Assembly: GCA_021778015.1 (NCBI GenBank)
Contig: JAJYCX010000009.1
Location: 12,522-76,521 of the forward strand
Direction of reading: 5' to 3'
DNA: 64,000 bases
Source of the DNA: Pseudomonadota bacterium
GTDB taxonomy: Bacteria; Pseudomonadota; Gammaproteobacteria; UBA1113
Positions 58,124 through 62,445 of the stretch are shown one piece after another. The stretch's first letter is position 1; every line of letters begins with the position of its first letter. The notes beneath the pieces are model-generated. The model had not been told where the DNA came from. It saw only the letters and a program-made list of their open reading frames with translations, and did not search any database. Both the position numbers and the translations under genes were made by a program.

Positions 58124-59425
58124 ATGTTTGAAACTATATTGATTGATCAAAACCCCCACTGGCATAAACATCAGCCCATTATCGCAGTAGTGCGGCAGCA
58201 ATTTGTCAAATTATTGCAATACCTATCCTTACCACACATCATTGCTATTACGGGCGTACGTCGTTGCGGCAAGAGTACTTTACTAAAACAGCTGATCGAT
58301 TATCTCATAGTAGTAGAGCATATTTCGCCAGACAATATAATGTTCTTAAATCTAGAACAACCTTTTTTATTGCCCTATGCCGATGATATACGCCACTTAG
58401 AACAAATGGTACAAGACTATCTATCGTTGAAGGCCCCTCAAGGGCAAATCTATATTTTATTAGATGAGATTCAATTCTTTGCCAACTGGCCTCTTTTTAT
58501 CAAATCTTATTTTGAATCTAAGAAAGTTAAATTCATTATTACCGGTTCAAATTCATCGCTGCTTTCTTCGGATATGATGACGCTACTTTCAGGGCGAGCA
58601 CTGGCCATAGAATTATATCCTCTTAATTTTAGTGAAATGATATTGCACGAACTGAAATTAAATACAAAGGATGAAATCATTGCAAAGCGATCTGAAGTCA
58701 TTCATCGCTTACGCCATTATGTAGAACAAGGCGGATTTCCTGAATTACTGTCTGTTAAAGCGCCCGACCTACGTGCTGATATACTGAATGCTTATGCCAA
58801 AACCATCATTCTGCAAGACATTGTCCCCAGGTTAGGCATGCGCAAACCCGAGCAATTAGAAAAATTATTCGTTTATCTGATTACCAACATAGGTGCACTC
58901 AGTTCATACCATAAATTAGCATCTTATTTTTCATTAAGCGACAAGGCCATCAAAGACTATATTCAAGCCTTTCATAAAGCATATTTATTATTTGAAGTTG
59001 AACGTTTTTCTTTTTCCCTTAAACTTCAAGACAGAAGTCCTAAAAAAGTATACGCCATTGATACGGGGATGGCCAATGCCTGCGGTTTCAGATTCTCCAA
59101 CAACCATGGGAAATTATTAGAAAATATGGTGTTTTTAGATGCTTTATGTCGTGGCTATGAAGTTTATTATTATAAAACCGCAGAACAATTTGAAGTTGAT
59201 TTTGTAATCAAAAAAGATAGAACCATGCAACTATTACAAGTATGCTGGCAAATCAAAGATGATCTCGTTTTAATACGTGAATTACGTGCTTTAAGTGCCG
59301 CTTTAGATGAATTAAAATTAGATAAAGCGTATTTAGTTACCTTTGATGAAGGATTCTATTCAAAGGCAGAGAGTGATAAGCGCATTGAAATCATACCGGC
59401 TTATCAATGGTTATTGCGCGATTAA
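58124..59425 (+). CDS. AAA-type ATPase with DUF4143-like C-terminal domain (COG1373 family)
   Basis: 433 aa with P-loop GVRRCGKST and Walker B ILLDEIQ. The size and layout are typical of the family. Confidence 0.7.
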   Translation: MFETILIDQNPHWHKHQPIIAVVRQQFVKLLQYLSLPHIIAITGVRRCGKSTLLKQLIDYLIVVEHISPDNIMFLNLEQPFLLPYADDIRHLEQMVQDYLSLKAPQGQIYILLDEIQFFANWPLFIKSYFESKKVKFIITGSNSSLLSSDMMTLLSGRALAIELYPLNFSEMILHELKLNTKDEIIAKRSEVIHRLRHYVEQGGFPELLSVKAPDLRADILNAYAKTIILQDIVPRLGMRKPEQLEKLFVYLITNIGALSSYHKLASYFSLSDKAIKDYIQAFHKAYLLFEVERFSFSLKLQDRSPKKVYAIDTGMANACGFRFSNNHGKLLENMVFLDALCRGYEVYYYKTAEQFEVDFVIKKDRTMQLLQVCWQIKDDLVLIRELRALSAALDELKLDKAYLVTFDEGFYSKAESDKRIEIIPAYQWLLRD

Positions 59426-60057
59426 GTAAGATCCATCACGATAGACAGCGTACCGGTGGTTGCGCCGCTGGTATACTGACACACTGCTGCACCTTGTGCA
59501 GTTTTAGTCGGGCCTGTAGGAGAGGTTGGCGTTATACCTACCCCACCCGTTGAAGGGTTGGTGAAAGTATAAGTAACACCATTCAGCGTTACCTTACCCG
59601 GAGAAGGCAAGGGCAAAGAATTGGTTAATTGCAACGCCAAACTGGCGCAAATTCCACCCGCTTTATTATTCTTGGTTGTAGTAACCGTTGTAGCTGGCAC
59701 ATTGTAAAAACTAATCCCTAGGTAATTACCATTAGTAGACACTTTCAATGAATTGGCTTGTATAGACCAAGGATTCACTGTATCACTCGTCGTTAACAAA
59801 CCTGCAGATTGTAAAGTAGCTAAAGGAACCTTGCCGGGTACATAACTAGGCGATTGAGCGTATGCACGTACTGCGTTGCCTATATCATTCGTTATTTTGA
59901 TCGTTGCCACCATATTGGCATTATCACTGGCGGTTTGATAATACATCAAAACCGCCATGATAATGACAGTACCTATCGCCACTGCCAGTATTGTTTCTAG
60001 CAAGGTTAAACCTTTTTGCTTACAACGTTTTATTACTGTCATTGGCGATAGTGTCAT
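59422..60057 (-). CDS. type IV pilin-like protein (type IVb-like leader), large paralog
   Basis: 211 aa. Leader ...KRCKQKG then LTLLETILAVAIG..., then MYYQTASDNAN, with two distal Cys. Confidence 0.75.
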   Translation of the reverse strand: MTLSPMTVIKRCKQKGLTLLETILAVAIGTVIIMAVLMYYQTASDNANMVATIKITNDIGNAVRAYAQSPSYVPGKVPLATLQSAGLLTTSDTVNPWSIQANSLKVSTNGNYLGISFYNVPATTVTTTKNNKAGGICASLALQLTNSLPLPSPGKVTLNGVTYTFTNPSTGGVGITPTSPTGPTKTAQGAAVCQYTSGATTGTLSIVMDLT

Positions 60058-60075
60058 GAGCCCTCCTAATCCGGA

Positions 60076-60549
60076 TTAAAGCGGATAGGTAAAAGAGCAA
60101 CCAGTAGTGCCTAGTACAGTCCCTTGTGTACTTTTAACCATATTCCAAATGGCATCACAATTCGCATCACCACCAGTACCCCCAGCACCCGCTGCGCCTA
60201 TACCGGCAACCGTAATAAGAACTGATGCTGGAGATAACGTCGGGGTTGCCGTGTATGGCTGTCCCCAAGCGGTATTCAATGGTGTTGGTAAAAAGCCAGC
60301 GGTTTGTAAAGCGGGTATATCAGTAGTTGTTGCTAAAGTATTTCCTCCCGCCATAAAGGATTCATAAGCGGATACAATCGCATTCATGTCTCCCACTGTT
60401 TTGGTCGTATTGGCATTTTGTTTGGTAGACATATAGAATATGACCGCACCTATCAACACCAAAGCACCGATGGCTATAGCAAACATCGTTTCCAATAACG
60501 TTAAGCCTTTCATTTTACTAAACGGCTTTCTCATTAACATTCGTTTCAT
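60076..60549 (-). CDS. type IV pilin-like protein (type IVb-like leader)
   Basis: 157 aa. Leader MKRMLMRKPFSKMKG then LTLLETMFAIAIG..., then IFYMSTKQNAN, with a C-terminal Cys pair (NCDAIW...GCSF). Confidence 0.78.
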   Translation of the reverse strand: MKRMLMRKPFSKMKGLTLLETMFAIAIGALVLIGAVIFYMSTKQNANTTKTVGDMNAIVSAYESFMAGGNTLATTTDIPALQTAGFLPTPLNTAWGQPYTATPTLSPASVLITVAGIGAAGAGGTGGDANCDAIWNMVKSTQGTVLGTTGCSFTYPL

Positions 60550-60663
60550 TACATTATCTCCTCAATAAATTAAAAAAAATTAACACTCACACACAAAACT
60601 ATTTTCCCACCAGCCTTGTTGGCTGTGGTTAGTACCCCCATTTTCATTATTCCTTTAAATCAC

Positions 60664-61731
60664 TTAAGTCCCCAAAATTTGCGAAATAGCATAAGTCCCC
60701 ATGACCATCAATCCCGCTGCGACCGCGCTCAAAGCCAAGATAAGCGATCCAAATAATTTGCTGACCTTTGTAAGGACTTTCATGCCATTGATATTCGCCT
60801 GCTTACCTTGGCGAACCAATGCATGCTCAAAGCCTTTGGCCTCAGCGATGGCGCGCAAGCGTATAATATCTCCCCGATCAATCAACCCCGTATTCAACAC
60901 ATCCGCAATATTACCCTCACCCTTACCCAAACGCCGCTCCATCAAACGCATATGAAAACGCAGATAAACGCTAGCTTGTCTGGAGATCAGTGTCAAGGCT
61001 TGCTTGAACACCACACCATTCAATACCAATAAGCCTAGGGTTTCCATAAAACTCGCCGCAGTCAATTTACGATAAAGGCTCAACAGCGGAAGTTGGTCTA
61101 ACGTATCGCGTCCAGGACCTATATACGTCTTCAAAATAAAATTTAACAATATAATAAAGCCTATAACACCTAAAATAACTATCCACCAACCATGAGTTAA
61201 CAGTTGGGCTAAACTATACAACATCTGGCCACTTTCAGGCCATACAGCTACCGGCTTAACTTGCGCAAACTGCTCCAAGATACCGCCTTTGGTGTTAAAG
61301 TTCATGATAATGCCACAGGCAAAGGCCAATACCACTATAGGGTAAGTCAGTTCAGAGAACAGCGTCGATACCACCTGCGATTGCTGCCCTAAAGCTTCGG
61401 CCGCCACACGGATGTTGTGCACCATGGTCCCGCCTTGCTCACCAATACGTACCAATTCCACCACATAATGCGGGAACCAACCAACCATACCATCTGAAAA
61501 AGATTGTCCTTGGGCAAGCGAACGACTGATGCTTTGAGCCACTTTCTTGGCTGGCCCTTCTAGGACCTTTTCCAGTACATCAATAGCTTTATTAGCGGGC
61601 ACGCCGTCTTCCACCAAGGTAGCCAAATCTTCTAAAAAGCTTTGCTGATCACCACCGCGAAACAATAGCCTATCTAGGTTAAAGCCAGTCGATGCTTTTT
61701 TTATCACTTTCTCTTTGGCCATGCCGCGCAT
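60664..61731 (-). CDS. type II secretion system F-family pilus platform protein (BfpE/TcpE-sized)
   Basis: 355 aa with two GspF-type cytoplasmic domains separated by TM segments. It is shorter than the ~400-aa type IVa PilC. Confidence 0.75.
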   Translation of the reverse strand: MRGMAKEKVIKKASTGFNLDRLLFRGGDQQSFLEDLATLVEDGVPANKAIDVLEKVLEGPAKKVAQSISRSLAQGQSFSDGMVGWFPHYVVELVRIGEQGGTMVHNIRVAAEALGQQSQVVSTLFSELTYPIVVLAFACGIIMNFNTKGGILEQFAQVKPVAVWPESGQMLYSLAQLLTHGWWIVILGVIGFIILLNFILKTYIGPGRDTLDQLPLLSLYRKLTAASFMETLGLLVLNGVVFKQALTLISRQASVYLRFHMRLMERRLGKGEGNIADVLNTGLIDRGDIIRLRAIAEAKGFEHALVRQGKQANINGMKVLTKVSKLFGSLILALSAVAAGLMVMGTYAISQILGT

Positions 61732-61793: not shown

Positions 61794-61843
61794 CTTAAGA
61801 CCGTCTTAATAGGGCGATATTTATACTTTGTGCGATCCTAAAA

Positions 61844-62344
61844 TTAAGGGAAGCGATAGCGGAAAGCACAATTATAATCCGACCCGGACAGCTCAGTGGA
61901 ATACCCCCCCGTGTTTTGGACGATAGCCCATATTGCATCACAACGCGAATCGGGGGCAGAACCATATTGCGTTGTGCCTAGCCCAGGAATACCAATCGTG
62001 ATGTACCCAGAATACTCCGTAAGCGAAACAACATAGGCTTGTCCCCAAGCGTCATTTAACGGATTAGGTAAAAAGCCTGCGTTTTGTACTGCTAGCAATT
62101 GAGCGGCATCGGTGGAAGCATTGAATTGATAGCCACTGGTAAGATACGATTTGTAACCCGTTCTAATGGCATTCATATCGGTCATGGTTTTACTGACATT
62201 AGCATTTTGTCGGGTTGATTGATAAAATATAACGGTACCCATCAGCACCACGGCACCCACTGCCACTGCAAACATCGTCTCCAATAGTGTTAAACCAGTC
62301 ATTTTATTCGCGGCAGGTTTTCTCAATAACATTCCGTTCACCAT
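61844..62344 (-). CDS. type IV pilin-like protein (type IVb-like leader)
   Basis: 166 aa. Leader ...RKPAANKMTG then LTLLETMFAVAVG..., then IFYQSTRQNAN, with a C-terminal Cys pair (RCDAIW...NCAF). Confidence 0.78.
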   Translation of the reverse strand: MVNGMLLRKPAANKMTGLTLLETMFAVAVGAVVLMGTVIFYQSTRQNANVSKTMTDMNAIRTGYKSYLTSGYQFNASTDAAQLLAVQNAGFLPNPLNDAWGQAYVVSLTEYSGYITIGIPGLGTTQYGSAPDSRCDAIWAIVQNTGGYSTELSGSDYNCAFRYRFP

Positions 62345-62386
62345 CTTGTCTACCCAATTTTAAATCTTATATTAGAACATACAATA

Positions 62387-62402
62387 ACAAATAGCGAGTT
62401 TT
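62387..62402 (-). promoter_or_regulatory. conserved 16-nt box, copy 2, upstream of the third pilin gene
   Basis: See 61778-61793. Confidence 0.4.
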
Positions 62403-62445
62403 ATTAGGATTTGCTGAAAAGCGTGGTATATAGGACTGCCAATAA

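Follow-up and report, generated by a model that had tools for sequence, protein, structure and literature searches.

The pilin-platform locus of a probably complete but dispersed type IVb-like filament system in an uncultured Legionellales-like bacterium

A 64-kb stretch of contig JAJYCX010000009.1 (assembly GCA_021778015.1), the whole of which is called the window here, carries three prepilin genes and one gene for a T2SSF platform protein, all on the minus strand between positions 59422 and 62344 according to the list of open reading frames (ORFs). Our analysis indicates that this module is, with good probability, the pilin-platform locus of a type IVb-like filament system that is complete but dispersed. 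The host is an uncultured Legionellales-like bacterium, and the genes of the motor and of the outer-membrane pore sit at two other places in the genome. The four genes are intact and conserved, and neither 'orphan' nor 'remnant' describes the module. A preliminary description of the same DNA had recognised the module, and its four ORFs were confirmed as described, but it inferred either a cassette borrowing the machinery of another system or a remnant; the sequence observation was right and that inference was wrong, while the type IVb-like label it used is reasonable but has to be qualified.

Results

Loci of the ATPase and the secretin

In the 64-kb window, tblastn with family queries returned neither a T2SSE ATPase nor a secretin nor any further cluster gene at E<0.1, and a Pfam survey of the listed ORFs of at least 120 aa, minus four that were nested in or overlapped longer ORFs, showed no type IV ATPase or secretin and no Peptidase_A24. 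The earlier statement that neither ATPase nor secretin is nearby is true for the window. Homologues of the platform protein numbered 138, all from metagenomes or metagenome-assembled genomes (MAGs) and a few of them labelled tcpE or PulF; about a dozen were 68-92% identical to it and more than 100 were 38-53% identical. Scanning one genome per species gave 80 loci, all in MAGs titled Gammaproteobacteria, Legionellales, Coxiellaceae or Legionellaceae. The platform family is large, found in uncultured Legionellales/Coxiellaceae genomes and apparently undescribed, and our literature search found no account of the family or of a type IVb-like pilus in Legionellales.

Outside the clade of the window, a T2SSE ATPase gene lies directly upstream of the platform gene in 58 of 60 loci, and a secretin gene lies downstream of it in 32 of 51; within the clade the counts are 0 of 5 and 0 of 4, respectively (tblastn matrix; only loci with enough upstream or downstream sequence were counted). 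The usual complete cluster has a TcpQ-like gene and a PilN-type lipoprotein secretin gene downstream. One such cluster, L002, encodes the ATPase, the platform, five small pilins, four larger N_methyl proteins, a TcpQ-domain protein, the secretin and a ~430-aa protein, and Peptidase_A24 was found neither in L002 within its flanks nor in L003, a distant member with no secretin in its flanks. This one distant family member (L003 4797-21032 and L004) has genes for a 535-aa protein of no known identity and a 636-aa ankyrin-repeat protein between ATPase and platform, and a gene for a protein of more than 2285 aa after the pilins. Two loci outside the clade, L056 and L083, likewise have no ATPase gene upstream of the platform gene, so that break-up of the cluster may have occurred more than once.

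The clade of the window comprises eight species-level loci (L005-L012), whose platform proteins are 68-91% identical to that of the window and which have no ATPase or secretin gene wherever the flanks are long enough to judge. Most of the clade loci with flanks keep parts of the order argS ... pilins/platform ... (DUF4143) ... tusE-ettA. Searching with the ATPase of a complete cluster returned two 90%-identity clusters of family-type ATPases, with 13 and 14 members, which are 66-67% identical to the ATPase of L002. The genes of these solo ATPases (P0162, P0165, P0264 and P0265, ~90% identical to each other) always lie directly after sucCD and have no platform gene nearby. Profile search with the family secretins led to a third locus, with the order methyltransferase / TcpQ-like - secretin - ~415 aa - 261-303 aa - His_Phos_1 ... 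MscS - MFS, and this synteny is kept in three clade members.

These loci are connected with the module in several ways. The MAG JAJXVU01 encodes ATPase P0265 on JAJXVU010000016 and the pilin-platform module on JAJXVU010000002, and the MAG JAJNBM01 encodes secretin P0299 on JAJNBM010000051 and a six-pilin module on JAJNBM010000004. The exact platform protein of the window is encoded in GCA_027351165.1, in the European Nucleotide Archive (ENA) assembly ERZ27236847 and in Logan SRR17201898; the exact ATPase P0264 occurs in ERZ27236847 and SRR17201898, and secretin P0308 in ERZ27236847. A PilB/GspE-type assembly ATPase in the same genome is thus found at the level of MAGs and assemblies, not inside the window. 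An orphan that borrows the machinery of another system, as had been proposed, is not supported, since cognate ATPase and secretin are found in the same-clade MAGs JAJXVU01 and JAJNBM01, respectively, and both in assembly ERZ27236847.

The tetranucleotide composition of the window correlates with that of the secretin contig at 0.964, with three ATPase contigs at 0.954-0.955 and with two others at 0.915 and 0.922; the highest value among family loci outside the clade is 0.938. A 21-nt repeat core, GGAGTAC(C/T)GAGTACAGGCTCC, with similar flanks (tttgttatcctcg), which we used as a lineage marker, is found in the window (38668 and 54135), in its twin L090 and in the solo-ATPase contigs (L085-L089 and L093-L095), and nowhere else in 1.7 Mb of loci. 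The closest complete-cluster relatives of the solo ATPase, of the secretin and of the window platform are largely the same loci, and the counts agree, with 27 solo-ATPase sequences and ~28 clade platform sequences. Near the solo ATPase, a 132-134-aa pilin of the N_methyl/ComP_DUS type (type IVa-like) is encoded ~2 kb downstream on the opposite strand (L085-L088 and L095), and the JAJXVU01 contig has a gene for a 635-aa AMIN-domain protein in this region (L107, 4409-6316); together they hint at a separate type IVa system and hence at a PilD.

Pilins and platform protein

The Pfam family N_methyl matches all three pilins (2.3e-5, 1.5e-4 and 3e-3), passing the gathering score in pilins C and B and remaining below it in pilin A (3e-3), and NCBIfam gave sub-threshold matches only, to GspG, PpdD and ComGE. 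Every pilin has the motif G/LTLLE with a hydrophobic helix after it, Leu at +1, Glu at +5 and a single C-terminal Cys pair, and counted from the first ATG the leaders have 15-17 residues. Pilin orthologues keep the leader motif RKP..KM.G despite saturated synonymous sites, and the long leaders are therefore supported. Prepilin A has the leader MVNGMLLRKPAANKMTG followed by LTLLETMFAVAVG..., with a mature part of 149 aa and the pair Cys118-Cys142; the mature parts of prepilins B and C have 142 aa (Cys116-Cys136) and 195 aa (Cys121-Cys177). Conservation among the three is highest for prepilin C, at 70-74% to its orthologues, and this protein may be a minor pilin or a tip pilin.

Profile search of the PDB showed that the nearest solved pilin beyond the N-terminal helix is TcpA, at 2.6e-6 for the pilin C group, where the match spans positions 16-158, and at 6.5e-4 for the A/B group; CofA and GspG (1e-3) came next, and BfpA was not among the matches at E<=10. 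The basic leader ending in Gly before LTLLE and the C-terminal Cys pairs were thus borne out in all three prepilins, but the pilins, whose mature N-termini had been called BfpA-like, have TcpA and then CofA as their nearest solved relatives. An AlphaFold2 model of pilin C, made from an alignment of the three window pilins only, was unusable (predicted local distance difference test score, pLDDT, 43).

Depending on the species of the clade, the module has anywhere from 2 to 6 pilin genes. The organism of the window has a depth of ~5-20x in the mine-drainage runs X1-X4. Within this population, a strain variant without pilin B was seen in run X3 as a contig joint from 60057 to 60664 (606 bp). More generally, runs X2 and X3 hold contigs of co-occurring strains that lack pilin B, or that lack 137 and 97 bp inside pilin C, where the gaps fall in the variable C-terminal half (59447-59759). 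The pilin cassette is polymorphic within the population.

The platform protein matches Pfam T2SSF (PF00482) at 1.2e-17 in two stretches, and its NCBIfam matches are sub-threshold (ComGB, PilC and GspF). The only PDB match is Myxococcus xanthus PilC (2.9e-15; query 26-253 on PilC 77-311), than which it is shorter by ~50 N-terminal residues. Platform length in the family is 338-387 aa, so that the earlier account of a 355-aa GspF-family protein, short like the platforms of type IVb systems, was correct.

Selection and integrity of the genes

The ratio of non-synonymous to synonymous substitution rates (dN/dS) is 0.02-0.13 for the platform across the clade, at dS ~1-3, and 0.12-0.38 for the pilins, with 0.15-0.21 for the prepilin A orthologues in L005, L007 and L008. 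The ORFs are all intact in the six species-level clade MAGs that have enough sequence. The platform, the pilins and the promoter box described below are under purifying selection, which rules out decay and speaks against the remnant that the preliminary description had offered as its second option.

Promoter box and intergenic repeats

The 16-nt box AAAACTCGCTATTTGT occurs exactly, on the minus strand, before pilin A and before the platform gene (Table 1), with a chance expectation of 0.05 per window at up to 2 mismatches; the identical box with similar flanks is thus real. Both copies sit within paralogous blocks of 73 nt with 71% identity to each other, and 16 nt past the end of the box starts TATAAG before pilin A and TATAAT before the platform gene, where the palindrome TTAAGACgGTCTTAA also precedes the block. 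The pilin A block is kept in L007 and L090-92, its core also in L005; the platform block is nearly invariant in the window, L005 and L007 though dS is 0.9-1.3, and has 2 mismatches in L010. Among the loci scanned, the box is confined to the clade of the window and stands solely upstream of pilin A or the platform. The box regions were not called by a scan for the sigma-70 consensus. Because the box lies at about -43 to -28 relative to the conserved TATAA(T/G), it may be a non-canonical -35 element or an activator site.

Nested palindromic intergenic repeats of ~30-100 nt (TGTCATCCTCGACC ... GGTCGAGGATGACA) occur at ~10 sites of the window. The copy between argS and pilin A has a word depth of ~200-1600x in metagenome contigs, against ~5-20x for its flanks, and a variant without 202 bp (62430 to 62633) was found in runs X2 and X3. 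The high word depth and the 202-bp presence/absence point to a high-copy element resembling a repetitive extragenic palindrome or a miniature inverted-repeat transposable element, with presence/absence polymorphism. The spacer between platform and pilin B folds no better than its shuffles (z = -0.97), and no RNA family of Rfam matched in the window.

Classification of the family

The ATPase, the platform and the secretin were placed by pairwise and profile scores. Of the NCBIfam models, TIGR02520 (R64 PilN type-IVB family) fits the secretin best, with 209 bits where its cut-off is 288 bits, followed by MshL (112 bits), GspD (48) and PilQ (40). A lipobox, L(A/V)GC, is present in the secretins, and directly upstream of the secretin gene is a gene for a TcpQ-domain protein. 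The ATPase is about equally similar to the GspE and PilB models of NCBIfam. Among solved structures it matches GspE (1e-57), PilF (4e-51), PilB (1e-45) and BfpD (6e-40) in this order, and among plasmid proteins pO157 GspE (204 bits), IncI1 PilQ (~200 bits) and CofH (139 bits). Source records that name these ATPases 'TadA' carry automatic labels, and the ATPase reaches 62 bits with the TadA-family model. Neither a Pfam nor a PDB match was obtained for the ~415-aa and ~260-aa accessory proteins, and the ~415-aa family resembles R64-type PilO weakly (hhalign probability 29%). One secretin candidate, P0319, belongs to an unrelated R64-like thin-pilus cluster beside a type IV secretion system from the human gut, and was kept as a comparator only.

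Pilins with class III signal peptides and a polytopic T2SSF platform place the system in the type IV filament superfamily. Type IVb systems are characterised by a single cluster with a dedicated prepilin peptidase, an outer-membrane lipoprotein secretin of the BfpB/TcpC/PilN type, mature pilins of ~180-200 aa, a +1 residue other than Phe and leaders of ~15-30 aa; the clade of the window is split into at least three loci, and mature pilins A and B have 142-149 aa and mature pilin C 195 aa, with A and B about tied between TcpA and GspG. A type II secretion system (T2SS) is not indicated, as the secretin scores only 48 bits with the GspD model, the pseudopilin models match weakly via the N-terminal helix, and no GspC/L/M/N homologues were recognised in Pfam, PDB and profile comparison of the cluster proteins. 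Nor is a Tad/Flp (type IVc) system, which would have very short Flp pilins, a platform split into TadB and TadC and a CpaF/TadA ATPase, the pilins here having 157-211 aa, the platform being a single two-repeat protein and the ATPase being nearest to GspE/PilB. As ATPase placement and the scores of pilins A and B are ambiguous, the type IVb label rests mainly on the secretin/TcpQ side. By these scores the family would not be a clean member of the classical type IVb class, its likeness to type IVb lying mainly in the secretin and TcpQ, in the shortness of the platform and in the N-terminus of the pilins. The type IVb-like label given earlier stands at the system level (PilN-type secretin, TcpQ, short platform, Leu/Ile at +1, TcpA nearest).

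Bounds of the module and other features of the window

The module is bounded as first described, by the convergent DUF4143 gene, whose stop end overlaps that of pilin C, and on the other side by argS (Table 1). The AAA_14/DUF4143 gene lies between pilin C and tusE in the window, L001/L007, L090 and L092, and no close homologue was found at this position in L008 and L010; it is regarded as a later insertion, outside the pilus module.

Table 1. Positions of the pilin-platform module, its promoter-like blocks, its neighbours and the intergenic repeats in the window
Feature	Position	Strand	Remarks
Prepilin A	61844..62344	-	166 aa, ORF; own upstream box; holds the position that the ATPase gene has in complete clusters
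Platform protein	60664..61731	-	355 aa; GspF/PilC/TcpE superfamily, two T2SSF repeats, inner membrane
Prepilin B	60076..60549	-	157 aa; paralogue of A, 51% identity
Prepilin C	59422..60057	-	211 aa; always the last gene of the module
Promoter-like block before pilin A	62360..62432	-	contains 16-nt box 62387-62402
Paralogous promoter-like block before platform gene	61751..61823	-	contains 16-nt box 61778-61793
DUF4143/AAA_14 ATPase gene	58124..59425	+	convergent with pilin C, 4-nt overlap
argS	start near 62712	+	divergent from the module
Palindromic repeat sites	62488-62567; near 3998, 13733, 22611, 38593, 44582, 46706, 48881, 54175		

According to the Pfam survey, the other genes of the window are ordinary chromosomal ones, namely gap-pgk-pyk, a hyp/NiFe-hydrogenase cluster, cydAB, dam, queG, glyA-nrdR-nusB-pgpA, ettA and tusDCBE. 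At 9205-21124 (plus strand), the hydrogenase maturation set (HypB-like, HypF, HypD and HypE) is followed by a four-gene [NiFe]-hydrogenase-like operon for a 4Fe-4S protein, an NAD-binding/FeS protein, the small subunit and the large subunit, and these genes are notable for a Legionellales-like genome from mine drainage. ORFs of 843, 570, 252, 357 and 383 aa without a Pfam family, at a GC content of 0.35-0.36, lie at 51475-54006 (plus), 42568-44280 (minus) and 21594-25157 (minus). The relative L001, although otherwise syntenic, lacks the 843-aa gene, which L090 has, and these ORFs are candidates for lineage-specific, possibly effector-like insertions. The CsrA domain of a 131-aa ORF at 12777-13172 (minus) covers residues 74-124 only, and either the listed start is too far upstream, which is probably the case, or the protein has an unusual N-terminal extension.

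Discussion

Proposed mechanism

The three prepilins would be inserted in the inner membrane, where a prepilin peptidase would cut them after Gly-1 and methylate Leu+1. This peptidase is probably the general PilD of the cell; Peptidase_A24 was found neither in the survey of the window nor in the examined parts of complete clusters. The 355-aa platform would then couple the pilins to the hexameric assembly ATPase, the product of the solo gene directly after sucCD in the clade, and the fibre would exit via the PilN-type lipoprotein secretin and its TcpQ-like partner, encoded at the third locus with the ~415-aa and ~260-300-aa accessory proteins. The two paralogous box promoters may drive pilin A and the unit platform-pilin B-pilin C, respectively. 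The ancestral state was presumably a single cluster with the order ATPase-platform-pilins-minor pilins-TcpQ-secretin-accessory genes, which the clade of the window would have broken into at least three loci, with fast gain and loss of pilin genes (2-6 copies).

Several findings weigh against a dispersed type IVb-like system. The loci are linked by MAG binning, by their joint presence in two assemblies, by composition and by the shared repeat, and not by a closed genome. The four large N_methyl minor pilins and the prepilin peptidase were not located for the clade of the window. The ATPase is as near to GspE as to R64 PilQ and farther from BfpD and CofH, and for pilins A and B the scores with TcpA and with GspG are about the same. 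The 16-nt box is absent upstream of the solo ATPase and of the secretin operon, with a partial AAACTCGC standing upstream of the solo ATPase in place of the full box, so that a common regulon is not shown. Neither reads nor contigs of the region occurred in three metatranscriptomes from the same study, which at 20-150 Mb are too small to inform.

Alternative explanations

The same dispersed architecture could serve a T2SS-like pseudopilus or secretion device and not a surface pilus, which concerns the role of the system and is compatible with its being complete but dispersed. The ATPase is closer to GspE than to BfpD, the mature pilins A and B are GspG-sized with weak matches to GspG models, the four larger N_methyl proteins of complete clusters match GspH/GspG weakly and equal GspH-K in number, and the Tcp and Cof type IVb pili also secrete proteins. 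However, the secretin is PilN/MshL-like and not GspD-like, GspC/L/M/N homologues were not recognised, and exposed fibres typically have multiple pilin paralogues that evolve fast, vary in copy number and have disulfide-bonded C-termini. A secretion device is hence rather unlikely, though it is the alternative that fares best.

Much less probable is a true orphan cassette for pilin diversification, which would be served by type IVa PilB/PilQ or by a T2SS, with the solo ATPase and the secretin having another function or belonging to another organism. Such a cassette would fit the lack of an ATPase or secretin gene in the window and within 10 kb in five clade loci, the ComP_DUS pilin and AMIN-domain protein near the solo ATPase, from which a type IVa system is probably present, and the fact that MAG binning and co-assembly are no proof of a single genome. 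On the other side, both the solo ATPase and the secretin are orthologues of the family type and have their nearest relatives in common with the window platform, they occur in the same MAGs and assemblies as the module, the ATPase contigs share the lineage-specific repeat and both kinds of contigs the composition of the window, and the numbers of solo-ATPase and clade platform sequences match. Platform proteins, moreover, usually pair with a cognate ATPase in type IV pili and T2SS. The last alternative, a decaying and now non-functional remnant of a once complete cluster, could appeal to the missing ancestral neighbours and to the lack of transcripts in the undersized metatranscriptomes, but it is contradicted by the selection data, by the four intact ORFs in each clade member with enough sequence and by a promoter block nearly invariant across species, and is extremely unlikely.

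The dispersed type IVb-like system is thus the reading we prefer. With somewhat less than an even chance, we further propose that the family is a distinct, undescribed type IV filament subtype, present in at least 80 species-level Legionellales/Coxiellaceae genomes and mixing type IVb with type IVa/T2SS-like traits, and that the clade of the window has dismantled its machine into separate loci and kept it functional. The type IVb traits of the family are the PilN/TcpQ-type lipoprotein secretin, the short platform and the non-Phe residue at +1; the type IVa/T2SS-like traits are the GspE-like ATPase, the small major pilins, the four large minor pilins and the lack of an own peptidase.

Significance and comparison with known systems

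The Legionellales are host-associated, and their known surface machines are Dot/Icm (a type IVB secretion system), the Lsp T2SS and type IVa pili. A widespread additional filament system, whose pilins evolve fast and vary in copy number, could be a means of attaching to protist hosts or to surfaces, and secretion is the other candidate role. The case also shows that a pilin/platform locus which looks like an "orphan" can belong to a split system as one of its pieces, and single-locus models would miss such a system or call it incomplete; it is also a dated example of the break-up of an ancestral type IVb-type operon under continuing purifying selection. Type IVa pilus genes are usually scattered over loci, whereas classical type IVb systems are single clusters. 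The relatives of the module conform to the latter pattern, 58 of 60 being single clusters, but in the clade of the window the ancestral cluster is broken and the ATPase gene is a loner after sucCD. The published detection model for type IVb pili ('multi_loci / loner') does accommodate more than one locus and also a solitary pilD (Denise et al. 2019, PMC6668835).

Bfp of enteropathogenic Escherichia coli shares general type IVb traits with the family, among them a lipoprotein secretin, Leu at +1 and a platform that is short, and the secretin of one MAG was annotated bfpB by its source. It differs in that BfpA was not matched in the PDB, that BfpD is a weaker match to the ATPase than GspE, PilF or PilB (6e-40 against 1e-57 to 1e-45), and that the examined clusters showed neither a retraction ATPase of the BfpF type nor a BfpP peptidase. 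Tcp of Vibrio cholerae and the CFA/III-Longus pili (Cof/Lng) of enterotoxigenic E. coli are nearer on the pilin side, TcpA being the best solved relative and CofA also appearing, and they have in common with the family the TcpQ-domain secretin partner, the non-Phe residue at +1, Glu+5, the C-terminal disulfide and a platform that some sources label tcpE. Mature pilins A and B nevertheless have 142-149 aa against ~199-208 for the TcpA and CofA chains (PDB table), CofH and the ATPase are far apart (139 bits), and the complete relatives have five small and four large pilin-like genes instead of one minor pilin; no peptidase was seen in those examined.

The R64/IncI1 thin pilus (PilL-PilV) has a PilN-family lipoprotein secretin encoded between a TcpQ-domain protein and a ~414-aa protein, a short PilR-type platform and an ATPase that is ~32% identical (~200 bits), all as in the family. 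An R64-like cluster from a gut metagenome (L096) has the order TcpQ-secretin-PilO(414 aa)-...-ATPase-platform-pilin. The family differs from R64 in its gene order and in having no PilU peptidase, PilT or shufflon PilV; its platform is only 23-25% identical, and its secretin scores 209 bits against the trusted cut-off of 288. Finally, the family is located on chromosomes in housekeeping neighbourhoods and not on a conjugative plasmid, and in the clade of the window its genes are spread over at least three loci.

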